From assembly GCA_021825365.1 (NCBI GenBank), contig JAKAHR010000002.1, positions 121,639 to 153,638 of the forward strand: a DNA stretch of 32,000 nt. Direction: 5' to 3'. This stretch comes from Nitrospirota bacterium. GTDB taxonomy: Bacteria > Nitrospirota > Thermodesulfovibrionia > Thermodesulfovibrionales > UBA6898. The position numbers were made by a program, and so were the translations under genes. Shown here piece by piece: positions 19,983-32,000 of the stretch (within the stretch, counting starts at the first letter, position 1; every line of letters begins with the position of its first letter). Under the pieces are notes generated by a model. The model was not told the DNA's origin. It saw only the letters and a list, made by a program, of their open reading frames with translations, and made no database searches.

Positions 19983-20528
19983 CTAGAGCTCTGACACCTC
20001 GCGAAGCACCTGAGGGTTTCGCGTGAGGACCCGCCTGCACGCCTTACAAAACTCCTTTGACTTGTGGTCCGTGTCGCTGAGGTTGTATGAGAAGAACATG
20101 ACACACTGCCGCTGGCTGCAGTGCGAGAGCCCAAGAAGGTGTCCGACCTCATGGACCGCAGTCTTGACAGCCCTTCCGATAACCCCTCTGCCGGCCGGCT
20201 TTCTCTCATCACCCTGGCCGAAGCGGGCTATGGAGATAATGGCAGCCGGATATTCACGATCAGCAAGACCGAATACATAATTCAGTCCTGGATACGAGAG
20301 ATCGACATCTGTAATCGCAACTGTCAGCCCCGGCCCTTTCGCCAACGAGCGGAGACATTTCAGCAGATGCGCCGCAAAGTATTGCCTGCCCGGAGACTCT
20401 TTCGCGAATCCCTCAATAGAGGCGGTCGGCGCCACGGTAACAGGGAAACCCAAGAGCGAACCCGTCTCCTCCGCAACCGTTGAAACAATATCGATATCGA
20501 TGTTCCCAAGAGGCACTACCCGTATCAT
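19983..20528 (-). CDS. amzA: Archaemetzincin-like zinc metallopeptidase (peptidase M54)
   Basis: HEVGHLLGLSHCSQRQCVM....CKAC fits the archaemetzincin signature HExxHxxGxxxCxxxxCxM...CxxC. Start set at ATG 20528 (MIRVVPLGN, GGAG just upstream) rather than track position 20627. Confidence 0.75.
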   Translation of the reverse strand: MIRVVPLGNIDIDIVSTVAEETGSLLGFPVTVAPTASIEGFAKESPGRQYFAAHLLKCLRSLAKGPGLTVAITDVDLSYPGLNYVFGLADREYPAAIISIARFGQGDERKPAGRGVIGRAVKTAVHEVGHLLGLSHCSQRQCVMFFSYNLSDTDHKSKEFCKACRRVLTRNPQVLREVSEL

Positions 20529-20644
20529 CGTCTCCGGGACGTCTCGCCTCATCATCGCCGTACCTGTGCTCACGAAATATGGAGAGGCAAATCCCGTGCC
20601 TGCCAAAAGGGGCCTTCCTCCCCCCATAGCCGCCTGACGTTATT

Positions 20645-20671
20645 TCATATTGAAATGCCATTTCAATATGA
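20645..20671. promoter_or_regulatory. 27-bp perfect palindrome, candidate operator for the NtrC-type regulator
   Basis: TCATATTGAAATG-C-CATTTCAATATGA has 13-bp arms. The half-site CATTTCAAWATGA is the same as in the inverted repeat at 24784-24820. It lies in the intergenic region about 100 nt upstream of yeeE. Confidence 0.55.
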
Positions 20672-20750
20672 GAGAATTCATAAGCATATCCACCGGGGAA
20701 ATTCACTCGAAACAAAACGCCGGAGTTGGCTTTATCGCCTTCTAAAACCG

Positions 20751-20772: not shown

Positions 20773-21897
20773 ATGTATCCGGAGATTGTTCTTACCCATC
20801 TTCTGTTTGGCATCGGACTCGGCGTTGTCATGCATCGGTCGGATTTCTGCATGGCCGGGGCATTCCGCGATATCTTCATCACCCGCGATTTTTTCCGGAT
20901 GAGGGCTGTCATCCTCCTGGTTTCCGTGACCTCCGTACTGCTATACCTGGCCCGCACTGCCGGCCTCGTGGACTCTTACCCGCCATCCTTCTATTCCTCC
21001 CCCTCGCTCGCCCATCTTGCGGGAGGCGTCATCTTCGGCATCGGCATGGTCCTTGCTGGCGGTTGTGTTATGGGAACCCTCTATAAAGCGGGAGCTGGAA
21101 ACCTTGTCAGTCTGTGCGCCTTTTCAGGACTCCTTCTCGGCAGCCTGCTCTTCGCCTGGGCATATCCGCTGCACCGCTCCTTTGTCGAGGCGACTACCCT
21201 GCCCGGCGGATTTACCGCCATGGAACACCTGACCGGAGCCCCGGGGCTGTCCGCATTACTTATCGTCTCGATATCCATCCTGTACCTCTTCAGGGGAAAA
21301 GAGCGTCCTGCCTGGACGAGTAATGCCTTTGCCAGGGGTTATCTCGACCCCTGGAAGGCGGCGCTTATCGTCTGCGCGATCATCATCCTATCCTTTACCC
21401 TGACCGGCCGCCCTCTCGCGCTTACGTCAGGGTACTCAAGACTTGCCTCGTGTCTTGCAGAAAGGTTGCTGCCCGAAGCCGTCACCCTTCCCTCCGCCAG
21501 AAGCGACTCTGTTCGTCTCCTCTATGGGATGGCCATGGACCCGGAGAGCCTGTCAGGGACTGACCCTGTGGTGCTCACGCAGGTACCCCTGATCTTCGGA
21601 ATTGTCATCGGCGCCTTTCTTTCCGCCCTGAGGCTGGGGGAGATCACCGCCCGCCCGGCGCCTCCCCGAAGGCAGCTCCTTTCCGGTTTCGCTGGCGGCA
21701 TCCTCCTCGCATGCGGTTCTCTGATGGCAGGCGGCTGCAATGTCTGGCATATCATGGGAGGACTGCCGCTTTTCGTATTTCAGAGCGTCCTCTTCGTCTG
21801 CGGCATGGGGTTCGGCGCATATGTCGGAAGCCGCCTGCTGCTCACAACGGTCCTTCAAGTTGAGAGGTGTGCCCCACATGGAAACCATAGCTATTGA
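20773..21897 (+). CDS. yeeE: YeeE/YedE-family sulfur-compound transporter
   Basis: 374 aa, polytopic. The Cys-containing motifs of the sulphur-transport domain are HRSDFCMAGAFRDIF, GMVLAGGCVMGTLYKAG and GSLMAGGCNVWHIMGG. Confidence 0.85.
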   Translation: MYPEIVLTHLLFGIGLGVVMHRSDFCMAGAFRDIFITRDFFRMRAVILLVSVTSVLLYLARTAGLVDSYPPSFYSSPSLAHLAGGVIFGIGMVLAGGCVMGTLYKAGAGNLVSLCAFSGLLLGSLLFAWAYPLHRSFVEATTLPGGFTAMEHLTGAPGLSALLIVSISILYLFRGKERPAWTSNAFARGYLDPWKAALIVCAIIILSFTLTGRPLALTSGYSRLASCLAERLLPEAVTLPSARSDSVRLLYGMAMDPESLSGTDPVVLTQVPLIFGIVIGAFLSALRLGEITARPAPPRRQLLSGFAGGILLACGSLMAGGCNVWHIMGGLPLFVFQSVLFVCGMGFGAYVGSRLLLTTVLQVERCAPHGNHSY

Positions 21898-22117
21898 TAT
21901 CAGGGGGCAGATCTGCCCCGCCTGTCTGCTGATTACTCTACGGGAAATCAACACCCACAAGACGGTCCTGAGGGACGGCAAGGCGCGCCTCGTCATAAAA
22001 ACCGATCACCGCGACGCCACAAGGACAATACCCTCCACGGTCTGCGCCATGGGGTACGATATCAATGTTACAGGCCGGAAGGGTTACTACGAGATCACGA
22101 TCGGGTACCGGAAATGA
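21878..22117 (+). CDS. tusA: TusA/SirA-family sulfur carrier (variant CPAC motif)
   Basis: 79 aa from ATG 21878 (METIAIDIRGQICPACLL...). This is the D.RG..CP motif of the TusA fold. It overlaps the yeeE end by 20 nt and the kinase start by ATGA. Confidence 0.75.
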   Translation: METIAIDIRGQICPACLLITLREINTHKTVLRDGKARLVIKTDHRDATRTIPSTVCAMGYDINVTGRKGYYEITIGYRK

Positions 22118-23403
22118 GAAAGATCGCTCCCCTCCGTATCAACAATATCGATGAACTCCAGAAGAGCAATGAGACGCTGAAGCGTTACATCCGGGAAAAG
22201 GTGAACCAGTTGCTCTCGATGATGGGCACGAGGCCGCTTGATCCCGCCGAGCTTGACGACAGTACGCTGCTTGACATCGATCCGATCGGCATCATAGCCG
22301 ACGCCTTCGGCCAGGTCCTCGAACACCTCGAGGAGACTAACAGGAAATTGATCAACACCAAGGATCAGTTGCAGGCCGTCTTCGAGACCGCAGGGGTCTG
22401 CATCTCGATCGTCGACCCTGACCTCAGGATCATCAGCTGCAATGAGAAGCAGCGGGAATTGCTCGTCTCCGATCTCAACGAGAAGGAATTTGTCGGCCGC
22501 TATTGCTACGAGGTCTATTGCGGTAACGATTCTCCGGCCCTCTACTGTCCGGCGATCGAGACGATCGAGACAGGGAAACCGGTCTTCATCAGGGAAATCA
22601 AGAAGAAAGGCAGGTATTTCCAGATCGTCACCTCCCCCCTGAAAAACCGCGACGGCACCCTCAAAGGCGTCGTCGAGGTCTCGATCGACGTGACGGAAAA
22701 GAAGAGGGCTGAAGAGGGCATGCGGCAGGCCGAAAAATTGTCAGCCATCGGCCTGCTCGGAGCCGGCGTTGCCCATGAGATCAATACACCCCTTGGTAAT
22801 ATCCTCGGCTATGCCAAAATGCTGCTAAAGGAGCAGGACCTCAGCGACCACCATAAGGAAAAATTGCAGGTCATCGTCGAACAGGCGAAAAAGGGCAGCG
22901 AGATCATCAGGGGACTTCTCAATTTTTCCCGTCAGTCAAAGCCTTCCCTTGCCACCATTTCGATGAACGATATGGTCAACAAAGTGCTCCTGGAGCTTTC
23001 GACCCAAATCGAGCGACAGGGGATAACCACCAGAAAAAACCTCCGGCCGATACCCCTCGTCGAGGCTGACCCCCTGCAGATAGAGCAGGTGCTCAGCAAT
23101 CTGGTGCTGAATGCGCTCCACGCCCTTGCCCGGACCCCGGAGGGGACCATCATCGTTGAGACACAGCGTACCGGCGCCTTTGTGGAGACGCGGATTGTCG
23201 ATAACGGCCCCGGCATATCCGACACCCTGCTCCCCCTGATATTCGATCCCTTCTTCACGACCAAGCCCGTGGGCGAAGGAGTCGGCCTCGGCCTTTCCAT
23301 CTGCTCGGGAATCATCAGGGACCATGGCGGCACCATACAGGCGGAGTCCGACCCCCGGGGAAAGACGGTCTTTTCTTTCCTCCTGCCCGTCAGATCCCCA
23401 TGA
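22114..23403 (+). CDS. Soluble PAS-domain sensor histidine kinase (NtrB/AtoS type)
   Basis: 429 aa with no hydrophobic TM segment. Coiled N-terminus and a PAS-like region carrying five Cys (including RYCYEVYCGNDSPALYCP). H box AHEINTPLGNILGY; ATPase G boxes DNGPGI and GVGLGLSI. Confidence 0.9.
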   Translation: MRKIAPLRINNIDELQKSNETLKRYIREKVNQLLSMMGTRPLDPAELDDSTLLDIDPIGIIADAFGQVLEHLEETNRKLINTKDQLQAVFETAGVCISIVDPDLRIISCNEKQRELLVSDLNEKEFVGRYCYEVYCGNDSPALYCPAIETIETGKPVFIREIKKKGRYFQIVTSPLKNRDGTLKGVVEVSIDVTEKKRAEEGMRQAEKLSAIGLLGAGVAHEINTPLGNILGYAKMLLKEQDLSDHHKEKLQVIVEQAKKGSEIIRGLLNFSRQSKPSLATISMNDMVNKVLLELSTQIERQGITTRKNLRPIPLVEADPLQIEQVLSNLVLNALHALARTPEGTIIVETQRTGAFVETRIVDNGPGISDTLLPLIFDPFFTTKPVGEGVGLGLSICSGIIRDHGGTIQAESDPRGKTVFSFLLPVRSP

Positions 23404-24779
23404 CAAAAATTGATCTTTCTCCTGAGGCGACTCCGCTGGCCCATCTGCTTATCGTCGAAGACGACTACCGCATGAGACTTCTCATGAAGCAGCTTCTCGA
23501 AAAAGAGGGGTATGCCACAACGGTCACGGAAGACGGCCGGGATGCCGTATCCCTGATCAAGGAGCGCTTCTTTGATATCGTCCTCACTGACCTCAAGATG
23601 CCCCATCTTGACGGCATGGAGGTACTCAGCGTCTCCCGGGAAGTCAATCCGGACACCCCCGTAATCGTCACGACCGGATATGCAACCGTGGACTCGGCGG
23701 TTGAGGCGATGAAGAAGGGCGCCTATGATTACGTGCAGAAGCCGTTCGATCCCGACGAACTCCTCCTCGTCGTGAAGCGCGCCCTCGACTACCGAAGGCT
23801 GATCGACGAGAATATCCGGCTGTCGGTAGCCCTTGAGAGTTGCTCTGGAGAAGAATTCGTGGGAATGAGCAACGGGGCTGTCAAGACGCGAAAATTCGCG
23901 GAGAGAGTCGCGCCGTTTGATTCAACGGTATTGATCCAGGGCGAGACCGGCTCGGGCAAGGAACTTGTCGCACGGCTGATCCATCGGCTCAGCAGAAGGG
24001 CGTCTCATAAATTTCTCGCGGTAAACTGTGCCGCCCTGACAGAATCCCTCCTGGAGGCTGAACTCTTTGGCTATGAGAAGGGCGCCTTTACCGGTGCGAC
24101 CCAGATGAAACGGGGGCTTTTTGAGGCCTCGGACGGCGGCACGCTGTTCCTCGACGAGATCAACAACTCCTCGGCATCGATGCAGATGAAACTCCTCCGA
24201 GTACTGCAGGACGGCCGGATCATCCGGGTGGGAGGGGTCGAACCGATAGACATCAATGTCCGTGTCATCGCAGCCTCGAATGCTGACCTGAAGTCCGAGA
24301 GCGAAGAAGGACGATTCAGGAAGGACCTCTTCTACCGCATCAATGTGGTCATGATCGATATCCCCCCCCTGAGAGGCCGCCGCGACGATATCCCTCTCCT
24401 GGCGACTCATTTCCTGGACAAGTACTCCCGCAAGTTCGCGAAGGAAATTAAGGGCTTCAGTCCGGAGGTGATGAAGATCCTCGCTGACTATCCCTGGCCC
24501 GGCAATGTCCGCGAACTCGAGAATGCGATCGAGCACGCGGTCATCATGGCGAAATCGCAAAAAAGCATATCAGCCGAATCTCTCCCTGAAGAGGTCAGAA
24601 AGAAGAAGCAGGGTGCTCTACCCCCTCCTTTCGCGGCCGTTCGTCTCGATGAGGTCGAAAAATCACTCATAGAGCAGGCGATGCTCACCTTCAACGGCCA
24701 GAAGGCGAAGGCTGCAGAGGCCCTCGGCATCAGCTCTTCGACCCTCTGGAGGAAACTGAAAAAATACCGGCTTGAATGA
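23400..24779 (+). CDS. Sigma-54-dependent response regulator (NtrC family bEBP)
   Basis: 459 aa. Receiver domain (LLIVEDD...VLTDLKMP). AAA+ domain with GETGSGKE, the GAFTGA sigma-54 contact loop and DEIN Walker B. C-terminal Fis-type HTH (AAEALGISSSTLWRKLKKY). Confidence 0.95.
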   Translation: MTKIDLSPEATPLAHLLIVEDDYRMRLLMKQLLEKEGYATTVTEDGRDAVSLIKERFFDIVLTDLKMPHLDGMEVLSVSREVNPDTPVIVTTGYATVDSAVEAMKKGAYDYVQKPFDPDELLLVVKRALDYRRLIDENIRLSVALESCSGEEFVGMSNGAVKTRKFAERVAPFDSTVLIQGETGSGKELVARLIHRLSRRASHKFLAVNCAALTESLLEAELFGYEKGAFTGATQMKRGLFEASDGGTLFLDEINNSSASMQMKLLRVLQDGRIIRVGGVEPIDINVRVIAASNADLKSESEEGRFRKDLFYRINVVMIDIPPLRGRRDDIPLLATHFLDKYSRKFAKEIKGFSPEVMKILADYPWPGNVRELENAIEHAVIMAKSQKSISAESLPEEVRKKKQGALPPPFAAVRLDEVEKSLIEQAMLTFNGQKAKAAEALGISSSTLWRKLKKYRLE

Positions 24780-24783
24780 TCGT

Positions 24784-24820
24784 GCATTTCAAAATGACAA
24801 ACCAACTCATTTTGAAATGC
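24784..24820. promoter_or_regulatory. Upstream activator sequence candidate: 14-bp perfect inverted repeat
   Basis: GCATTTCAAAATGA-N9-TCATTTTGAAATGC starts 5 nt after the regulator stop. It lies about 165-200 nt upstream of the sigma-54 promoter, the usual bEBP enhancer distance. It is AT-rich and has no trailing T-tract, so it is unlikely to be a terminator. Confidence 0.6.
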
Positions 24821-24984
24821 GCAACCGCCGGTGCTGACTCCGGACTGACCGCGCAACACTTCACCGCCTCAACAACCCCGAAAACCAGTCTCCGCGCCAT
24901 TCCATAAGCCATTACGCTGATTTCCCAGGCAGCCGCCTCTGTAGTTATGTGCGCATTCCATCCCGCCGCGACCATTGCGCTCAC

Positions 24985-25000
24985 TGGCACCCATCTTGCT
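24985..25000 (+). promoter_or_regulatory. Sigma-54 (-24/-12) promoter
   Basis: TGGCAC-CCATC-TTGCT is an exact match to TGGCAC-N5-TTGCW. It lies 75 nt upstream of the first ATG of the downstream operon and directly downstream of a sigma-54 activator gene. Confidence 0.85.
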
Positions 25001-25074: not shown

Positions 25075-25254
25075 ATGTCGATAGAAGGAAAAGGCGGACT
25101 TACCTTGCCCTGGCTCTGGGTGGCTGTCGTGATCGCCTATCTCGCCTTTGGCTTCATGCTGCCCCCCTTCGATAGCCACCTGAAGGAGCTGGCAAAGGCC
25201 AAAGCTGCACCCGCGGCCGATCAGAGCGGGAAGGGCGACGAAATTGTCTTTTGA
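25075..25254 (+). CDS. Small single-pass membrane protein (59 aa), unknown family
   Basis: ATG 25075 is preceded by AAAGGAG (25061-25067). MSIEGKGGLTLPWLWVAVVIAYLAFGFMLPPF is one TM helix, followed by a charged and Ala-rich tail. First gene after the sigma-54 promoter. Confidence 0.6.
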   Translation: MSIEGKGGLTLPWLWVAVVIAYLAFGFMLPPFDSHLKELAKAKAAPAADQSGKGDEIVF

Positions 25255-25258
25255 CCGC

Positions 25259-25780
25259 ATGGTCGAGCCCCCCGCAAGAAGGCCCAGCCCCAGGGAAAAA
25301 CATCACGGGACTGCCCGGGTTTCCCCGGCGATACACCTTGTGCTCGCAGCTTTCCTCATCTTCCTGTGTGAAGGAAACCCCTGCGGAGAGGCGTCGGAAA
25401 AGAAAGGGAGCATATCCCCCGGGGGCGAGGTGCGGGAAATCCGGTGGACCCCCACGAGCGAGGGATTATCGGTAGAACGCATTGTAGCGCGGAAGAAGGT
25501 GGTGGTCCCTATCGAGGTCTCGCTCAACGGAAACATCGCAGAAGTAATCTTTATCATTCCTTCAAAATTCAAGGCCTTCGGCATCTCCATGGAACCACAG
25601 GTGGCCGAAGTGAAGAACGGCAAGGCACAAGCAGGGGTTGCGTTTTATATCCTGGAGGGGATGCCGCTCGGCAGGCACAATCTCATCATCGAAATCCTCG
25701 ATGGCCTGACCCGGACCAGGATAGGAAGCGCCACCATCCCCTTTATCCTCCTGCCGTCTGATCTCGAATGTCTTTGCTGA
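25259..25780 (+). CDS. Secreted protein of unknown family, paralogue A, ends in ..LLPSDLECLC
   Basis: ATG 25259 lies 4 nt after the previous stop (the track uses TTG 25244). Basic N-region, then a hydrophobic helix AIHLVLAAFLIFL (signal or anchor). The C-terminal 67 aa align without gaps to the next gene product (23 identities counted by eye). Confidence 0.7.
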   Translation: MVEPPARRPSPREKHHGTARVSPAIHLVLAAFLIFLCEGNPCGEASEKKGSISPGGEVREIRWTPTSEGLSVERIVARKKVVVPIEVSLNGNIAEVIFIIPSKFKAFGISMEPQVAEVKNGKAQAGVAFYILEGMPLGRHNLIIEILDGLTRTRIGSATIPFILLPSDLECLC

Positions 25781-25824: not shown

Positions 25825-26304
25825 GTGAAGAAAATAGGAACTCTTATGGGAGCCGCTATCCTGGCTTCCTTTCTGCTCGCCGGCGTACCATTGATTACTA
25901 CTCATAACAGCAGCGACGGTGCGGTGAAGACCGCCGAGGCGGCTGAGGCACCCTCCACAGACTTCGCGTGGCACCCCAACAGACCGGGGATCAAGCGGGC
26001 GCAGATAGCCCTCGGCAGGGCCTCTACACTTCGCTTCGAGTTCTCCCTCAAGGGAAAAAACGGCACACAGGTGAAATTCGGCTTGCCGAAAAAATATGTG
26101 ACCATGGGCATCAGGATCGACCCCCATGAAGTCCCGGTCAGCGAGGGAAAGGCATCGTCCAAGGCGGTGCTCACCGTGCCACCCGGAATGCCCCTCGGAA
26201 AGTTCGATATCCCCGTGATCGCGGTAGACGCGAAAACAGGAACAGAGCTCGGCAGGGGCGAGATCCCGATCATGCTGCTGCCTGCCGGAGTGGGCGGGTG
26301 TTAA
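25825..26304 (+). CDS. Secreted protein of unknown family, paralogue B, ends in ..LLPAGVGGC (SoxY-like C-terminal Cys tail)
   Basis: GTG 25825 follows an AAAAGGAGAAAGGAAGG SD region. Sec-type signal MKKIGTLMGAAILASFLLAGVPL. It shares the motifs LPKKY, GI.I.P, GKA, GMPLG and IP.(I/M)LLP with paralogue A. Confidence 0.75.
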   Translation: MKKIGTLMGAAILASFLLAGVPLITTHNSSDGAVKTAEAAEAPSTDFAWHPNRPGIKRAQIALGRASTLRFEFSLKGKNGTQVKFGLPKKYVTMGIRIDPHEVPVSEGKASSKAVLTVPPGMPLGKFDIPVIAVDAKTGTELGRGEIPIMLLPAGVGGC

Positions 26305-26331: not shown

Positions 26332-27732
26332 ATGGATGACTACGGAGTGCGAGGCTGGTGGGATGCGTGGTACAGGAAATTCTTCAAAGAAAAATGGCCG
26401 CTCTCAATGGCGGCGGTATTCATGGCACTTTCCGGGATAATTGCCTACGGCGTCGCGGTATGGTCCCTGGCCAGGACGGTGGCGGGAAGTAACCCGTACG
26501 ATCAGGCCAAACCGCTCGGCACCTTCCTCGGATTGAAGGAACTCGGCGGTATCATCAACGGCCTTCTGGGCAAGATCGGGCTCCCTCATTACCCCTTTGC
26601 CGGATATACGTGGCCTGATGGCGTGACGATCAACTTCTTCCAGCAATATCCAAATCCCTTGCTCGAACCGACGGCCGGCACGATGCTCGGCATACTCTTC
26701 GGAGGCCTTATCGCCGCCCTCCTGGCGAAGGAGTTCGCCCTGAAGGTACCCTTCGACAGGACCGAGTACAGCCTGGCGGTCGTCGGAGGCATCCTGATGG
26801 GGGTAGGCGCGGTCTTTCAGTTCGGCTGCCCCGTGGTGAGCACCACCAACCTGGGGGCCATGGGCGTACAGGCGATCATCATGGTCATCGGCATGACGAT
26901 CGGCTCCTATTTCGGAGCAAAAATCATCGTCTGGCTCGAAAAAAGAAGGGTTGCGGCGATCGCCTGCGCAGCGGACGGGGCCGGCTACCGGCCGCTGATG
27001 CTTTTTGAAAAGACAAAGACAGTCTGGCCCCGCCTGCCTGACCGGGCCGACGGCGGCGAACCGGCCGGCCTCAGGTATCAGCCGTATCTGGCCGCCTTGC
27101 TTCTGGGGGCGATGGTGCTCATCCTCCTCCGTTTTGCGGGCCTGGGCTACCCTGCTCTTTCGCTCTCCTTTGCCGCAGCCACCCTCACCGGCTTTGCGAT
27201 GCAAAGGGGAGGGATCTGTTTCGCCTACGCATACCGCGAACCGTTTCTCTCGGGATTTTCAGATATGTCGCGGGCGATGGCATTGCTCTACATCCTGCTG
27301 GTGCTCGGCTTCCTGCCGATGAAGCTGCTGGCGACTGCGAATCCTGATCTTGCGTATGCGGAGATTTTCGCGATTAGCCCCGCCGGCATCGGCGTCCTGC
27401 TCGGTTCAATTCTCTTCGGCATCGGCATGGCGCTCAACGGAGCGTGTGTCAGTGACAGCCTCTGGAGGACTGCAGAAGGACAGGTAAAGATCTGGGTGGG
27501 GCTGCTCACCCTCATCTGCGTGTCGTCCTGGATCTTTCCGATGCGCGAGGAGGCATGGTTCAAGAGTATCTTCGCGCCCTATGGCTCGCAGAACATCCGC
27601 GACGTATACCTGCCGGAGATCCTGGGCGGATATCCTGCAGCAGTCGCCTTTGTCATCGGCGTGGTAATTTGCTGGGCCCTGCTGATGACATGGTTCAGCG
27701 GCAGGACTTTCAGAAAATACATGGAGGAATAG
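26332..27732 (+). CDS. Divergent, enlarged YeeE/YedE-like membrane protein
   Basis: 466 aa, polytopic. YeeE-type Cys motifs are recognisable but diverged: GVGAVFQFGCPVVSTTNLG, QRGGICFAYAYREPF, GIGMALNGACVSDSLWRTAEG. It has an extra N-terminal segment and a long hydrophilic loop between the two halves. Confidence 0.7.
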   Translation: MDDYGVRGWWDAWYRKFFKEKWPLSMAAVFMALSGIIAYGVAVWSLARTVAGSNPYDQAKPLGTFLGLKELGGIINGLLGKIGLPHYPFAGYTWPDGVTINFFQQYPNPLLEPTAGTMLGILFGGLIAALLAKEFALKVPFDRTEYSLAVVGGILMGVGAVFQFGCPVVSTTNLGAMGVQAIIMVIGMTIGSYFGAKIIVWLEKRRVAAIACAADGAGYRPLMLFEKTKTVWPRLPDRADGGEPAGLRYQPYLAALLLGAMVLILLRFAGLGYPALSLSFAAATLTGFAMQRGGICFAYAYREPFLSGFSDMSRAMALLYILLVLGFLPMKLLATANPDLAYAEIFAISPAGIGVLLGSILFGIGMALNGACVSDSLWRTAEGQVKIWVGLLTLICVSSWIFPMREEAWFKSIFAPYGSQNIRDVYLPEILGGYPAAVAFVIGVVICWALLMTWFSGRTFRKYMEE

Positions 27733-27816: not shown

Positions 27817-28053
27817 ATGGCAACGGAAAGCCATATCGACAGGGAGCTGGATGTGAAGGGGCTCGTCTGTCCAAGGCCAATGGTGATGAGCATGAGTGCG
27901 CTGAAAGCGATGTCACCGGGGCAGGTGTTGAAGATCACGGCGAATGACAGCAGCACGAAACATTCCATTCCGGCCTTGTGCGAACGGGCAGGGTACAAAC
28001 TCGTCGAGCAGACGGAGGAGATGGGAGCTTTCATCTTCATCATCCAGAAATAA
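27817..28053 (+). CDS. tusA: TusA/SirA-family sulfur carrier (canonical CPxP motif)
   Basis: 78 aa. LDVKGLVCPRPMVMSMSALK is the TusA active-site motif. SD AAAGGAGG upstream (27803-27810). Confidence 0.85.
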   Translation: MATESHIDRELDVKGLVCPRPMVMSMSALKAMSPGQVLKITANDSSTKHSIPALCERAGYKLVEQTEEMGAFIFIIQK

Positions 28054-28106: not shown

Positions 28107-29411
28107 ATGCGAAAGAGGCTATTGGAAACAAATAGGGCAAGCCTGGTACTGCTGGCGATCGCCCTGTCACTGATCTCTTTTTCCCTGATTCTCCACGGAT
28201 GTGGAGGAGGCGGCTACGATGCCCCTGCCACAACCCAGACCGTGTCGGCCCTGGTCTCGCCCGAGACCCTCAAGGGCTGGATCGACAACGGGAGCGTAAA
28301 CGGCACGGGATACGACAAGGTCGTCATCCTCGACGTCAATTCCCAGGCAAACTACTCAGCCGGGCATATACCCGGCGCCCAGTTTCTCGATAGCGCGGAC
28401 ATTTATCAGACGAGAAACGAAGGCATCGCCGCTGACGTCAACATGGTCCTTGACGGCAGTCACATGGACGCATTGATCCACAAATACGGCATAGATCGCA
28501 ATACAACGATCGTTTTTACAAGCGGCAACAATGATCCCAAGACAACGCCGTCGTCCATGCTCTCTGCCACCAGGGCCTATTGGACCTTCCGGTACTGGGG
28601 CTTTCCCAAGGAGAGACTCAAGGTAGCCGACGGCATCAACCCCGCATGGTCCGCCGTGTTCGGACTGACTACCGCCCCCTCGCCGGCGATCATCCCCTCC
28701 ACGTACAGCGTAAAGAGCAACGGGCTTCTGCGGAGCGAAGTAAGGGCATCTCTGGCCGAGATGATCAGCCTCGTTGACAGCGGAACTCCCAACGCGCTGA
28801 TCATAGACGGCAGGGGATCAGGCGGCTCGTTTGCAGGCACCCCAGGGTCGACCGCAGGCGTCTTCCCCCCGACCGGAGATTTTGTCGCCTTTGAAGGAAG
28901 GATCAAAGGGGCAAAGGCATTGGGATATACAACGCTCTTTGATTCCGGCAACGGCAACCGCTTCCTCCCGCCGGACCAGCTCGCCGCGAAATTTGCCGCG
29001 ATCGGGCTCGACAGCTCCAAGACCGCCTATGTCCACTGCCGCACCGGCGTCATCGCCTCTGCCCTGTATTTTGCACTCGATGGAATCCTCAACTGGCCAG
29101 CGTCCAACTATGATGCATCCTGGAGCCAGTGGGGGCAGCTTGCAGGAGACCCAACTGACGGCAAACAGATTGACCCGAATTCCCCCTGGAGAACCGACAT
29201 CCCCTCCCGGTCGGAGCTCGTCGTCTACAATGGGGCAAACGGCAAGACCGTCGAGAAGCTCTGTCTGGACGGTTCCGCCGCCACCTGCGCCACGCCGGCG
29301 TCGTTCGATACGGATGCGAACAAGATCGAGGAAGAAGACGCCGCGTATATGAACAGCGGCGGCTCAGCCGGCGGTTCCGGAGGCGGAGGAGGAGGCAAGA
29401 CAGGATGCTAG
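28107..29411 (+). CDS. Tandem-rhodanese (thiosulfate/polysulfide sulfurtransferase-like) lipoprotein with Gly-rich C-terminal tail ending in Cys
   Basis: 434 aa. Signal peptide with lipobox LHG-C (Cys32). The first rhodanese domain lacks the catalytic Cys (VFTSGNND). The second has the active-site loop YVHCRTGVIAS (Cys311, nt 29037-29039). The tail is SGGSAGGSGGGGGGKTGC-stop. Confidence 0.8.
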   Translation: MRKRLLETNRASLVLLAIALSLISFSLILHGCGGGGYDAPATTQTVSALVSPETLKGWIDNGSVNGTGYDKVVILDVNSQANYSAGHIPGAQFLDSADIYQTRNEGIAADVNMVLDGSHMDALIHKYGIDRNTTIVFTSGNNDPKTTPSSMLSATRAYWTFRYWGFPKERLKVADGINPAWSAVFGLTTAPSPAIIPSTYSVKSNGLLRSEVRASLAEMISLVDSGTPNALIIDGRGSGGSFAGTPGSTAGVFPPTGDFVAFEGRIKGAKALGYTTLFDSGNGNRFLPPDQLAAKFAAIGLDSSKTAYVHCRTGVIASALYFALDGILNWPASNYDASWSQWGQLAGDPTDGKQIDPNSPWRTDIPSRSELVVYNGANGKTVEKLCLDGSAATCATPASFDTDANKIEEEDAAYMNSGGSAGGSGGGGGGKTGC

Positions 29412-29467
29412 GGAGCAATGATGCGGAAAGAGCAGAGAACCATTCCATCGTCAAGGAGGAGAATAGC

Positions 29468-30664
29468 ATGATGAGAATTCTAAAATGGGCGTTGCTCCTG
29501 ATGCTTCCGGTTGCCGTCTTCTGCATGGGAGAGCGGGACGCCCTCGCCTTTCAGCCTATCGTGTTTGGTGAAGAAGGGGCCTTTTTGAAAATCGATTATC
29601 AGGGCCAGCTTTACGGCGTGGTGCGTGACACAGGGTCCGGTCCGGACAAGACAGCGGATACGACTGACCTGTTCTTCAGAAGGAACCGTCTGACCTTCTG
29701 GGGACACGGCACCGACAAATACGGGTTTATCGTCCAGCTTGAATATACCGGGGAGAGGAGAGTCGACTCGCTCATCGTCAACGATCAGCCCGGCAAGGAC
29801 TTCAACGTCCTTGACGCCTATTTCATGGCGGACTTTTCGAACAGTTTCCGGGTCTATGCGGGAAAGCAGAAGATACAGCTGACGAGGGAAAACCTCGAAG
29901 ATTGTTTCGAGCCCCTCAGCGTCGACCGTTCCCTCTTCATCTATACGCCGTTCAAGCACAGCAGGGACACCGGACTGGTCGTCTGGGGAAACATCCCCGA
30001 GTTGCTGATGCAATACCGGCTGGCGGTCTCGAAAGGGAAAGATAATGGCGATGAGCCCAAGAGCTCCCTCATGTACACCGGCCGCGTACACGTCTCCCTC
30101 CTGGATCCGGAATACGCATACGGGTACAAGGGGACATATCTCGGGACCAAAAAGACGCTGACCGTGGGCGCAGGCGTTCAGTACGAGCCGGACGCGGTAT
30201 TCAGCGATATCGTCAACAAGACCGGGGGCAAGAACTACTCCGCCTGGACCGTTGATGCCTTTTTCGAATATCCGTTCAAGAATGCCGGTGCCATCACCCT
30301 GTCGGGGGCTTATCTGCAAACGAAATTCGACGAGGCCTTCAAGGGGAACAACCCTGATCCGGAGAGTCTCGGCATCGACGGAGACAAGAAAGGCTGGTAT
30401 CTGAAGGCAGGCTACCTCCTGCCCATGAAGATCGGGTGGGGGCAGGTCCAGCCCTTTGTCCGTTACGAGGACTGGAGTTTCGCCCAGCTGAACAATGTCT
30501 TTGACCAGAAGGTGAAGTGGTTCGGGGCAGGGCTCAACTATCTGATCAACGGACAGAGCCTCAGGATTACCCTCGAATACGCGAAGACGAATTTCGACAA
30601 GGAGCCGAATCCGCAGTCAAAGGATTTCAGCACGGTCACCGCGATGCTGCAGTATCGGTTCTGA
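29468..30664 (+). CDS. Outer-membrane beta-barrel porin, OprO/OprP-like (anion-selective porin family)
   Basis: Start at ATG 29468 (AAGGAGGAG SD). Signal MMRILKWALLLMLPVAVFC..ALA-F. FFRRNRLTFWG motif as in phosphate-selective porins. Alternating beta-strand pattern, with C-terminal ..MLQYRF (terminal Phe). Confidence 0.7.
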   Translation: MMRILKWALLLMLPVAVFCMGERDALAFQPIVFGEEGAFLKIDYQGQLYGVVRDTGSGPDKTADTTDLFFRRNRLTFWGHGTDKYGFIVQLEYTGERRVDSLIVNDQPGKDFNVLDAYFMADFSNSFRVYAGKQKIQLTRENLEDCFEPLSVDRSLFIYTPFKHSRDTGLVVWGNIPELLMQYRLAVSKGKDNGDEPKSSLMYTGRVHVSLLDPEYAYGYKGTYLGTKKTLTVGAGVQYEPDAVFSDIVNKTGGKNYSAWTVDAFFEYPFKNAGAITLSGAYLQTKFDEAFKGNNPDPESLGIDGDKKGWYLKAGYLLPMKIGWGQVQPFVRYEDWSFAQLNNVFDQKVKWFGAGLNYLINGQSLRITLEYAKTNFDKEPNPQSKDFSTVTAMLQYRF

Positions 30665-30876: not shown

Positions 30877-31266
30877 ATGGGAAACCATAGAGATGAAAGG
30901 GACAAGTCGTTTTATCCGGATTATCTGAGTGAAATCCTTGCAGCGATATTTCTAACGATCTTCACCGTTTTTATCCTCGCCATGGTATATGCGCCATCCA
31001 TTGACAGAGAGATCAACTATGTGTCTGCCTACCACCCGAAACCGGAATGGTACTTTCTCTGGATCTATCAGCTCATCAGGTATTTCCCGGGGGGTTGGGC
31101 CTTCGTCGGGACCGTGCTGATTCCGATTGTTGCAGCAGCTCTTTTCATCGGCATACCCTTTGTCGACCGCGGGACCGTGCGTTCCGGAAGGGCCGCCTCC
31201 TTTTTGTTTGCCCTGCTCTCCGTGTTCTTTCTCGTCCTGACCGTGGTGCCGCTTCTGTGGCCCTGA
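30877..31266 (+). CDS. Cytochrome b C-terminal-domain protein (b6f subunit IV / PetD-like)
   Basis: 129 aa with three TM helices and the KPEWYFLWIYQLIRYFPG motif (the PEWYFL signature of the cytochrome b C-terminal domain). Confidence 0.75.
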   Translation: MGNHRDERDKSFYPDYLSEILAAIFLTIFTVFILAMVYAPSIDREINYVSAYHPKPEWYFLWIYQLIRYFPGGWAFVGTVLIPIVAAALFIGIPFVDRGTVRSGRAASFLFALLSVFFLVLTVVPLLWP

Positions 31267-31283
31267 CAGACGACGTCTTTCCC

Positions 31284-31733
31284 ATGGACAGCAGAAGAGA
31301 TTTCCTGAGGCGTTTCGTGAAATCCGGCTTCGGACTGCTCGCCTTCCTCTTCGGAGCGACATTGCTCAGATTCCTCTATCCGTCACAGGTCCGTACGCGT
31401 CAGCTGCTCTACCATCCCCTGCTCAAGGAAGATGATATCCCGAGGCAGGGTGTCAGAAGGGTCCACCTGACATACGACAAAGGGGAGAAGACAATCACGA
31501 TGCGCCTTTTTCTCGTACATGCAGGGGCCGACATATTCGCGCTTTCCTCCTCCTGCACGCACCTCGGATGTCTGGTGGACTGGTCCCGCCACAAGGAACA
31601 GTTCGTCTGCCCCTGCCATGGCGGGAAATATGATATGCAGGGCAACGTCATGGCCGGTCCGCCTCCTCTCGCCCTTGCGCGGATGCCGTTGAAGATCGAA
31701 AACGGGGTAGTCTACATAGGGATTAAGGAGTAG
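31284..31733 (+). CDS. Rieske [2Fe-2S] subunit with Tat signal
   Basis: Start at ATG 31284 (MDSRRDFLRRFVKSGFGLLAF; the track ORF begins upstream at 31047). Cluster boxes CTHLGC and CPCHGG. Confidence 0.9.
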   Translation: MDSRRDFLRRFVKSGFGLLAFLFGATLLRFLYPSQVRTRQLLYHPLLKEDDIPRQGVRRVHLTYDKGEKTITMRLFLVHAGADIFALSSSCTHLGCLVDWSRHKEQFVCPCHGGKYDMQGNVMAGPPPLALARMPLKIENGVVYIGIKE

Positions 31734-31746
31734 ATTCATGGGAAGA

Positions 31747-32000
31747 CTATTCGACTGGGTCGACAGGCGTTTCAGCCTCAGCACGCCTCACAAGAACTTT
31801 CTGCAGAGGGGCATCCCCGCCCGACTGAGTTATCTCTATTGTCTCGGAGGCATAGCCTTCACCCTGGTTATTTTGCTTGTGCTCACCGGGATGATGCTGA
31901 GCATATACTATGTGCCCTCGGAGGCCGAGGCATTTCAGAGCGTGCTCAGGATAACCCGTGAAGTAAGGCTCGGCGCGCTCATCCGCGGGTTGCACAAGTG
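31747..32000 (+). CDS. Cytochrome b / b6 N-terminal domain protein (partial, runs off the right edge)
   Basis: Absent from the track because no stop lies in the window. ATG 31747 follows AAGGAG. MGRLFDWVDRRFSL...LSYLYCLGGIAFTLVILLVLTGMMLSIYYVPS....RGLHK is a typical cytochrome b N-terminus. Confidence 0.85.

Follow-up and report, generated by a model that had tools for sequence, protein, structure and literature searches.

How does an anaerobic bacterium perceive the inorganic sulfur found outside the cell, and can a sulfur transporter be part of the sensor? This question is raised by a stretch of 32,000 nucleotides of a Nitrospirota bacterium (assembly GCA_021825365.1, contig JAKAHR010000002.1, positions 121,639 to 153,638 of the forward strand), hereafter called the window, in which four genes encode a YeeE-family channel (YeeE1), a small TusA-like protein (TusA1), a PAS histidine kinase, and a response regulator. 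The way in which bacteria perceive extracellular inorganic sulfur has been called poorly understood (PMC11582611). From sequence comparison, we propose that the YeeE/TsuA-type channel, its dedicated single-Cys TusA/YeeD-like partner, and the soluble kinase constitute a transporter-fed cytoplasmic sulfur sensor, a reading that we regard as reasonably probable.

Organization of the Sensor Operon

The four genes of the sensor operon (Table 1) overlap at each of their junctions, by 20 nt between yeeE1 and tusA1 and by 4 nt (ATGA) both between tusA1 and the kinase gene and between the kinase and regulator genes. A first-pass annotation of this DNA had described these overlaps, and it had also described the kinase as free of any transmembrane (TM) segment and a second, divergent YeeE/TusA pair as present in the target operon. 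All of this is borne out: the maximal 19-residue Kyte-Doolittle mean of the kinase is 1.21, and the second pair corresponds to YeeE2 and TusA2. The kinase has the features of the HisKA type, i.e., an H-box with His221, a HATPase_c domain, and a cognate regulator gene overlapping its own by ATGA. Judging from the recurrence in relatives of both the gene order and the tusA-kinase overlap, the YeeE1-TusA1-kinase-regulator arrangement is not due to chance.

Conservation of the YeeE-TusA-Kinase Unit

We looked for related loci by three different searches. When one genome per species was scanned with an alignment restricted to the PAS domain, 30 loci were found, spanning Nitrospirota, Desulfobulbales (Desulfurivibrio/Desulfobulbaceae), Desulfoarculaceae, Pelobacter, and Geobacter, and the order YeeE-TusA-kinase(-regulator) was observed in 30/30. 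When metagenomes were scanned with an alignment of TusA1 only, 48 loci were found; the kinase gene comes next in all 46 that extend far enough, and YeeE is encoded upstream in 47 of the 48. The last search, exhaustive and profile-free, used kinase residues 1-215 and gave 42 cluster representatives possessing the conserved N-terminal region of the kinase. Eight distant representatives (33-41% identity) were chosen blind to their gene context, and seven of them have Sulf_transp and TusA genes immediately upstream, often overlapping the kinase start. The co-occurrence of YeeE-TusA with PAS kinases, proposed as a check in the first-pass annotation, is thus found whether one starts from the PAS domain, from TusA1, or from distant kinases.

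The outputs of these distant kinases differ, since they are hybrid kinase-receiver proteins or plain histidine kinases with no adjoining NtrC gene. Because the trio stays constant while outputs and target genes vary, the core of the system can be taken to be YeeE, TusA, and the kinase input domain; as far as gene order tells, this input trio is plugged into other outputs in relatives. With start codons that were inferred in the related loci, 52 of 75 loci show an overlap between tusA and the kinase gene, most commonly of 4 nt (33 loci). The module is carried by a cultured species, Dissulfurispira thermophila (AP022873.1, at about 1.966-1.971 Mb), and the closest homologs with a named source come from Thermodesulfovibrionales and from Nitrospirota/Nitrospirae. 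The window itself has a match in a contig of a Nitrospirota metagenome-assembled genome (GCA_027426035.1).

The Channel and Its TusA-Like Partner

YeeE1 matches Sulf_transp (PF04143) with 163.1 bits (cut-off 27), its residues 22-350 covering profile positions 1-309 of 310. It also aligns along its length with the solved YeeE (6leo/8j4c, E 5e-19), and, in the phmmer alignment with 6leo, its C26, C98, and C322 correspond to the three cysteines that Spirochaeta thermophila YeeE needs for transport (C22, C91, and C293). The NCBIfam equivalog models of TsuA are not reached (NF052577, 100.5 bits for a cut-off of 400; NF041049, 87.4 for 645). By these scores, YeeE1 is a member of the YeeE/YedE family and not a TsuA equivalog.

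TusA1 is a more divergent protein. It matches TusA (PF01206) with 40.5 bits (cut-off 28.6), gives weak matches with solved TusA-like proteins (E 0.07 to 0.4), and matched no TusA, YeeD, or YedF model of NCBIfam. Its reactive Cys13, within GQICPACLL, is invariant in our alignments, and CPAC stands where canonical TusA has CPxP. This is a family trait: 29 aligned loci have CP[AS]C, 7 distant ones have CP[AS][S/T/A], and CPxP never occurs. We considered that CPAC could work as a thioredoxin-like CxxC switch and rejected this as a general mechanism, because the second Cys is replaced by S, T, or A in the 7 distant loci. YeeD-type partners dock on YeeE, accept sulfur on their Cys, and then dissociate (PMC11073785), which is the behavior that would be required of a signal carrier.

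We also compared residue 16 of TusA1 (21923-21925) with residue 109 of the kinase (22438-22440). Over loci L003-L090, both are Cys in 64 loci, neither is in 12, and 4 are mixed, in a count confounded by phylogeny. This covariation could reflect a direct Cys-Cys contact or plain shared ancestry.

The Cysteine Site of the Kinase PAS Domain

The kinase has C96, C109, C131, C136, and C145 in its PAS domain and C397 in its ATPase domain. The five PAS cysteines of the first-pass annotation are therefore all present, C131-x4-C136-x8-C145 included. As to their conservation, which it had made a test of its proposal, the claim stands for this triad and has to be given up for the other two. Indeed, among 121 close homologs, C109, C131, C136, and C145 are invariant (121/121), and position 96 is Cys in 55 and Gly in 66. 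In a set of 43 sequences (the 42 distant cluster representatives and the query), the triad is retained in 37 and C109 in 8, so that C109 is clade-specific. We thus discarded the four-Cys site as a signature of the family, and the triad is this signature.

All loci taken together, 60 kinases contain the four cysteines C109, C131, C136, and C145. In the Geobacter/Pelobacter clade, C136 is replaced by Gly, with gain of C129 or H144, and in several kinases C109 has given way to Y, W, or F, in which case position 133 is often His. The pocket always retains at least three Cys, with an extra Cys or His where one is lost. In the structural model (pLDDT 89), C109 is found where strand B ends and C131 where helix E starts; C136 belongs to the E-F loop, and C145 immediately precedes helix F. 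Moreover, C131 corresponds in HMM (hidden Markov model) alignments to the photoactive Cys of LOV domains. From these positions and this alignment, the cysteine site lines the classical cofactor pocket of PAS domains. In fold searches, the domain is nearest to LOV and other cofactor-binding PAS domains. Profile and sequence searches of the PDB and Foldseek returned no solved PAS relative with such cysteines, only generic or LOV-type PAS domains.

Two chemistries can be considered for this site. By analogy with the SoxR, sHdrR, and CstR-type regulators, which work by persulfide or polysulfide bridging (PMC11582611), it fits a bridge of this kind that would be built with sulfur delivered by TusA1. 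The other is a Cys-ligated Fe-S or metal center. The soluble PAS kinase NreB of Bacillus licheniformis, acting with NreC, senses sulfide by a three-Cys [2Fe-2S] cluster in which a sulfur ligand is labile (Tang et al. 2023, PMC9918477; 2026, PMC13478379). Because at least three ligands are kept, losses are compensated by Cys or His (which by itself favors a metal site), and the placement of the cysteines is NreB-like, direct persulfidation is no more plausible than an Fe-S or metal site. Both chemistries are compatible with transporter-fed sensing.

Upstream of the PAS domain, the kinase has an unannotated and strongly conserved region (YIRDKVNQLL-VMGT-PL-EELDD-L-DPIGIIA-SF-Q-LEH), which is present together with the PAS domain in all members and is, from its conservation, a candidate docking surface.

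Two neighborhoods touch on this site. A few kb upstream of the module, paralogous multi-PAS kinases (L015, 2009-4201; L020, 2283-4829) have a related Cys/His-rich PAS motif (GRCCYEVSHRIDKPC...C), and, to judge from these sequences, Cys-rich PAS pockets are a wider, uncharacterized class in these bacteria. In Dissulfurispira thermophila (AP022873.1), a gene with the SufB/SufD core (PF01458; L091, 3709-4656) lies 4 nt upstream of yeeE. In L063 and L069, SufBD-like relatives are likewise adjacent to yeeE, upstream and in the same orientation, whereas that of L023 is encoded on the opposite strand at about 3.3 kb upstream. Such a neighbor is a possible hint of an Fe-S connection; we did not retain it as general evidence for one, since it is confined to these four among the loci fetched.

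Regulator, Promoters, and Operator Sites

The regulator has the elements of an NtrC-type sigma-54 enhancer-binding protein, i.e., a REC domain with Asp64, an AAA+ domain with a Walker A motif at 181 and GAFTGA at 228, and HTH_8, and a -24/-12 promoter lies within its reach. It does not reach the AtoC/NtrC equivalog cut-offs of NCBIfam and thus belongs to an unnamed subfamily. The promoter TGGCACCCATCTTGCT is the sole zero-mismatch match to TGGCAC-N5-TTGCW in the window. It is preceded by two activator sites, CATTTCAAAATG and CATTTTGAAATG, which begin right behind the stop codon of the regulator gene. This organization recurs: in 39 of 52 distinct loci, the 400 nt that follow the regulator contain a sigma-54 promoter with no more than 1 mismatch, versus 1.8% of control windows, and the exact palindrome is found after the regulator in 19 of these 52 loci, in both phyla (including Desulfobacterota), versus 0/962 control windows. 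The public record has a 43-aa gene (24776-24907) that covers the activator sites; this gene call is probably spurious.

The relaxed motif CAT[AT]T-N2-A[AT]ATG occurs 4 times in the 32 kb, always within two regulatory regions. The other region is the divergent one between the archaemetzincin (M54) gene and yeeE1, where the adjacent palindromes CATATTGAAATG and CATTTCAATATG are, by their sequence, probable binding sites of the regulator. Since the M54 gene comes first after the regulator in many related loci and heads there a sigma-54 operon, we read this region as a second target promoter. For its transcription, the divergent archaemetzincin gene probably depends on a weaker sigma-54 promoter: the minus-strand candidate is 56 nt from the palindromes, and site-promoter spacings of 53-73 nt are seen in related loci. 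As listed, the M54 open reading frame (ORF) starts at 20627, and the candidate promoter (20601-20586) and the palindromes fall inside or before its annotated 5' end; the start is probably at 20555 or 20528 instead. A Zn-protease such as archaemetzincin is an unexpected member of a sulfur regulon.

We had considered these palindromes as a sign of simple autoregulation of yeeE1, and they are better read as serving the divergent M54 promoter. They are nevertheless overlapped by the sigma-70-like candidate of the yeeE1 operon, and the regulator may in this way act on yeeE1. In related loci, no sigma-54 promoter was found upstream of yeeE1, save for one 1-mismatch match in L015, which is consistent with a basal expression of the sensor operon.

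The Target Operon

The operon behind the sigma-54 promoter contains, after a small TM protein, two secreted Ig-like proteins, CHP1 and CHP2, which are paralogous (31% identity, E 2e-17) and have no Pfam or NCBIfam match. The CHP2 family comprises 64 clusters among 5.8 billion proteins. The model is an Ig-like beta-sandwich (pLDDT >90 for residues 50-150) followed by a floppy C-terminal tail. GVGGC ends 18 of the 20 distinct CHP2 tails of the loci and is invariant in a 37-sequence alignment. From model and tails, CHP1 and CHP2 combine, as do SoxY and SoxZ, an Ig-like fold with a C-terminal swinging arm of the GGC(G) type; SoxY and SoxZ are absent from the top 50 Foldseek hits, and Pfam and NCBIfam show no sequence relationship to them. 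CHP1 and CHP2 may thus be, on this modeled fold, a new periplasmic sulfur-carrier pair, SoxY-like in principle.

YeeE2 has its two halves swapped relative to YeeE1 and to the solved YeeE, and is collinear with YedE/FdhT. It retains the three channel cysteines (C296, C372, and C166) and shares 26-31% identity with YeeE1 over half-domains. The rhodanese lipoprotein has a conserved Gly-rich C-terminal arm ending in GC. Taken together, the operon reads, from its predicted products, as an outside-to-cytoplasm sulfur acquisition line. Behind the porin gene and on the same strand, Pfam matches at 30877-32000 indicate a cytochrome b (split into N and C parts), a Rieske protein, and a multiheme cytochrome, and these genes may belong to the same operon.

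The regulon of Dissulfurispira and Desulfurivibrio has one proximal target, a secreted rhodanese with two domains, and no YeeE2/TusA2. Since this rhodanese-only regulon is found in many relatives, the second YeeE/TusA pair is a clade feature, outside the core of the system. The first-pass annotation had taken YeeE2/TusA2 as the high-flux route induced in response to the signal. The sigma-54 promoter and conserved sites lying between the regulator and the pair agree with such an induction here; as a general property of the system, the claim fails, since many relatives lack the pair in their regulons.

Table 1. Coordinates, in the window, of the sensor operon, its target operon, and their regulatory sites
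Feature	Position	Strand	Description
YeeE1	20773-21897	+	374 aa, YeeE/TsuA-type channel, full length; Pfam Sulf_transp
TusA1	21878-22117	+	79 aa, single-domain, divergent TusA/YeeD-like; Pfam TusA
Sensor histidine kinase	22114-23403	+	429 aa, soluble; PAS + HisKA + HATPase_c (Pfam)
Kinase N-terminal conserved region	22171-22353	+	about 60 aa, residues 20-80; alignment
Kinase PAS domain	22366-22710	+	residues 85-199; Pfam; model pLDDT 89
PAS-pocket cysteine cluster	22438-22548	+	C109 at 22438-22440; triad C131/C136/C145 at 22504-22548
Kinase H-box His221	22774-22776	+	in AHEINTPL
Response regulator	23400-24779	+	459 aa; REC + Sigma54_activat + HTH_8 (Pfam)
Upstream activator sites CATTTCAAAATG and CATTTTGAAATG	24785-24796 and 24808-24819	.	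CATTT-N2-AAATG; 23 nt center to center
Sigma-54 promoter TGGCACCCATCTTGCT	24985-25000	+	TGGCAC-N5-TTGCT; 75 nt upstream of the small TM protein gene
Small TM protein, first gene of the target operon	25075-25254	+	59 aa, single TM; conserved in related loci
CHP1, secreted Ig-like	25259-25780	+	ends LLPSDLECLC; family tail EC[L/M]C
CHP2, secreted Ig-like	25825-26304	+	ends LLPAGVGGC
YeeE2	26332-27732	+	Sulf_transp, YedE/FdhT-type
TusA2	27817-28053	+	canonical TusA, CPRP; Pfam 75 bits
Rhodanese lipoprotein, ExtH-like	28107-29411	+	NCBIfam NF040901, 317.2 bits (cut-off 200)
Outer-membrane porin, Porin_O_P family	29405-30664	+	Pfam; overlaps the rhodanese gene by 7 nt
Archaemetzincin (peptidase M54) gene	19983-20555	-	Pfam M54; NCBIfam archaemetzincin, 146 bits (cut-off 145)
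Candidate sigma-54 promoter	20586-20601	-	AGGCAC-GGGAT-TTGCC; faces the M54 gene; GG/GC core intact, 2 mismatches
Palindromic sites CATATTGAAATG and CATTTCAATATG, adjacent	20646-20670	.	divergent M54/yeeE1 intergenic region
Sigma-70-like promoter candidate of the yeeE1 operon	20650-20677	+	TTGAAA-16-GAGAAT with TG; 9/12 consensus matches, weak

Proposed Mechanism and Alternative Explanations

In the mechanism that we propose, YeeE1 would have a basal expression, independent of sigma-54 promoters, and would admit a little external reduced sulfur (thiosulfate or polysulfide), which TusA1 would accept on Cys13. This sulfur, or sulfide released from it, would alter the PAS cysteine site, by a persulfide or polysulfide bridge or by a change in an Fe-S or metal center. 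The altered site would raise autophosphorylation of the kinase at His221, and the NtrC-type activator would then switch on the sigma-54 operon for bulk sulfur uptake. A more specific version is that the TusA-type protein serves as a dedicated signal carrier: a protein persulfide derived from YeeE would be handed over to the PAS Cys triad or to an Fe-S site there, a sulfur relay feeding the phosphorelay. We put this version forward tentatively, as a possible and still doubtful one.

Several observations weigh against a transporter-fed sensor. One distant kinase with the same input domain (L081) is an orphan without YeeE/TusA, and one metagenome locus (L072) lacks YeeE and has a different permease on the other strand; the kinase can thus exist without YeeE/TusA nearby. 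The paralogous kinases of L015 and L020 share the Cys/His-rich PAS and are not beside YeeE, so that the cysteines are not unique to the module. Gene linkage as such is a fit for "sensory input" and for "always co-expressed" alike, and the sample of loci is phylogenetically clustered and includes redundant contigs (the same contig in two collections). Finally, all YeeE/TusA matches stay under equivalog cut-offs and the rhodanese belongs to the ExtH family, known from a selenite/tellurite operon, so that these matches do not fix the substrate.

The kinase could instead sense sulfide or redox state in the cytoplasm on its own, with a Cys-ligated Fe-S or metal center in its PAS domain as in NreB, YeeE1/TusA1 being just a basal uptake pair that passes nothing to the kinase. 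The orphan kinase speaks for this, as do the three to four pocket cysteines that are always kept and the compensating residues (C129 or H144 for C136, often His133 for C109), which make a typical set of metal ligands. The placement is also close to that of the sulfide-sensing cluster of NreB (PMC13478379): C145 stands directly before helix F, with C131 and C136 14 and 9 residues earlier, and NreB has C78 before helix alpha-2, with C63 and C66 15 and 12 residues earlier. The SufBD-like gene abutting yeeE in the Dissulfurispira clade points in the same direction. However, about 84 of the 86 loci sampled keep the trio despite changing outputs and targets, which is hard to square with unrelated cargo, and its tightest junction is precisely that between tusA and the kinase gene. 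The spacing, C-x4-C-x8-C, differs from the C-x2-C-x11-C(-x2-C) of NreB and places the kinase outside the NreB type, and no sequence similarity to solved Fe-S PAS domains was detected. We judge an autonomous sensor unlikely, and it is moreover partly compatible with the transporter-fed model, since an Fe-S site could itself receive imported sulfur.

Kinases that sense together with a transporter are well established, i.e., those reading PstSCAB-PhoU, DctA/DcuB, and BceAB. By such contact, the N-terminal region of the kinase would read the state of YeeE1-TusA1 (free versus docked or loaded TusA1) with no transfer of sulfur, and the role of the PAS cysteines would be to bind a structural metal. 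This would give a role to the unannotated stretch of about 60 residues that accompanies the PAS domain in all members; the overlapping tusA and kinase genes suggest co-production, and YeeD is known to bind and release YeeE according to its sulfur load (PMC11073785). Few residues of the input domain are, however, as conserved as the pocket cysteines, which argues for a chemical role, and the kinase has no membrane anchor to keep it at the transporter. We consider co-sensing of this kind quite improbable. Even less credit can be given to the idea that a selenium (or tellurium) species is sensed and imported in place of sulfur. The best NCBIfam match of both transporters is indeed the selenium-metabolism protein YedE/FdhT, TusA2 matches YedF too, the rhodanese scores above the cut-off of ExtH, which in Geobacter is the rhodanese of a selenite/tellurite reduction operon, and the module occurs in Geobacter and Pelobacter. 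But the YedE/FdhT scores are 109 and 92 bits for a cut-off of 350, the carriers are overwhelmingly sulfur-cycling Thermodesulfovibrionales and Desulfobulbales, sulfur disproportionators included, and a secreted two-domain rhodanese is the sole proximal target in many loci. Moreover, when these taxa disproportionate sulfur or thiosulfate, their YedE-TusA clusters are induced (PMC12998232). A selenium sensor thus appears very improbable.

Relation to Known Systems

The closest parallel to the transporter-fed sensor is found in Hyphomicrobium denitrificans, where SoxT1B, barely regulated and encoded beside a regulator and tusA, is a signal-transduction unit, and SoxT1A is the induced paralog that imports in bulk (Li et al. 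2024, PMC11582611). In this system, TusA is the proposed cytoplasmic acceptor, and the periplasmic, Cys-tailed SoxYZ is proposed to pass sulfur to the channel (PMC11582611). The link between SoxT proteins and signaling, invoked in the first-pass annotation, is therefore well founded. Here too there are two YeeE-family paralogs, one beside tusA and a regulator and the other behind a sigma-54 promoter that would make it inducible; a 56-aa single-TM protein accompanies soxT1A (PMC11582611) as a 59-aa one heads the target operon here. The differences are in the receiver, an ArsR-type two-Cys repressor (SoxR/sHdrR) there and a soluble Cys-PAS kinase with a sigma-54 activator here; in the bulk importer, here YedE/FdhT-type with swapped halves; in the sensory TusA, here without CPxP; and in the hosts, here anaerobic Nitrospirota and Desulfobacterota without Sox. 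PMC11582611 makes no mention of kinases, sigma-54, or these phyla. Hence, what is already known is the SoxT1B/SoxT1A-TusA-SoxR system, and what is new here, as predicted from the genes, is a SoxT-like logic with a Cys-PAS kinase as receiver and a sigma-54 output in anaerobes.

NreB resembles the kinase in that it is a PAS histidine kinase, is soluble, and reports on reduced sulfur, with three conserved PAS cysteines between strand B and helix F, and its gene cluster also has TusA-, DsrE-, and rhodanese-like genes. On the contrary, it works with a NarL-type regulator and not with sigma-54, has neither a YeeE channel nor an overlapping tusA, and requires O2 for sensing, whereas the hosts of the module are anaerobes. 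Sequence and fold searches of the PDB with the kinase PAS (fold library to April 2026) gave no NreB-like relative. The thiosulfate uptake pair YeeE(TsuA)-YeeD(TsuB) (Tanaka 2020; Ikei 2024, PMC11073785) shares with the module an adjoining channel and TusA-like partner with conserved cysteines; it is, however, assimilatory, has no attached regulator, and its partner has CPxP. FisR of Cupriavidus and Acinetobacter (PMC7315123) likewise brings about the sigma-54-dependent induction of sulfur-handling genes by sulfide or persulfide, but it is a one-component activator of sulfide oxidation genes whose own cysteines sense in Cupriavidus, with no kinase, REC domain, or dedicated channel.

In the same phyla, sulfur disproportionators and cable bacteria have the YTD cluster (yedE-tusA-dsrE-chp, now dsrEFH type II; PMC12998232, PMC13293266), which also groups a YedE-like gene, tusA, and hypothetical genes. 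In contrast, the target operon has no DsrE-like gene, and its hypothetical proteins are secreted, Ig-like, and end with a C-terminal Cys. Neither of these two papers contains a kinase or sigma-54 under the terms searched. Our full-text literature searches, whose coverage leaves out most subscription-journal papers, gave no prior description of a YeeE-TusA-kinase module.

Significance

The sole worked example of how bacteria perceive extracellular inorganic sulfur is a YeeE-like protein that feeds an ArsR repressor in an aerobic alphaproteobacterium. The module would extend the SoxT principle to two-component, sigma-54 signaling in anaerobes (Thermodesulfovibrionales, Desulfobulbales, and Geobacterales), whose processes include sulfur disproportionation, sulfate reduction, and cryptic sulfur cycling. 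It brings a regulon in which the initial steps of elemental-sulfur or thiosulfate uptake can be tested, with a porin, an ExtH-like rhodanese, two Cys-tailed periplasmic proteins, a YedE-like importer, and TusA, and it provides a new Cys-triad PAS family to place beside NreB. Its defined promoter and operator are usable for sulfur biosensors, and a cultured, fully sequenced carrier, Dissulfurispira thermophila T55J, permits direct testing.

If the more specific proposal is true, the TusA-to-PAS relay would represent a class of two-component input that has not been described before, and the input trio would be portable, joined to different outputs. It would then be the long-sought route by which anaerobic sulfur disproportionators, sulfate reducers, and relatives of Geobacter perceive external sulfur.

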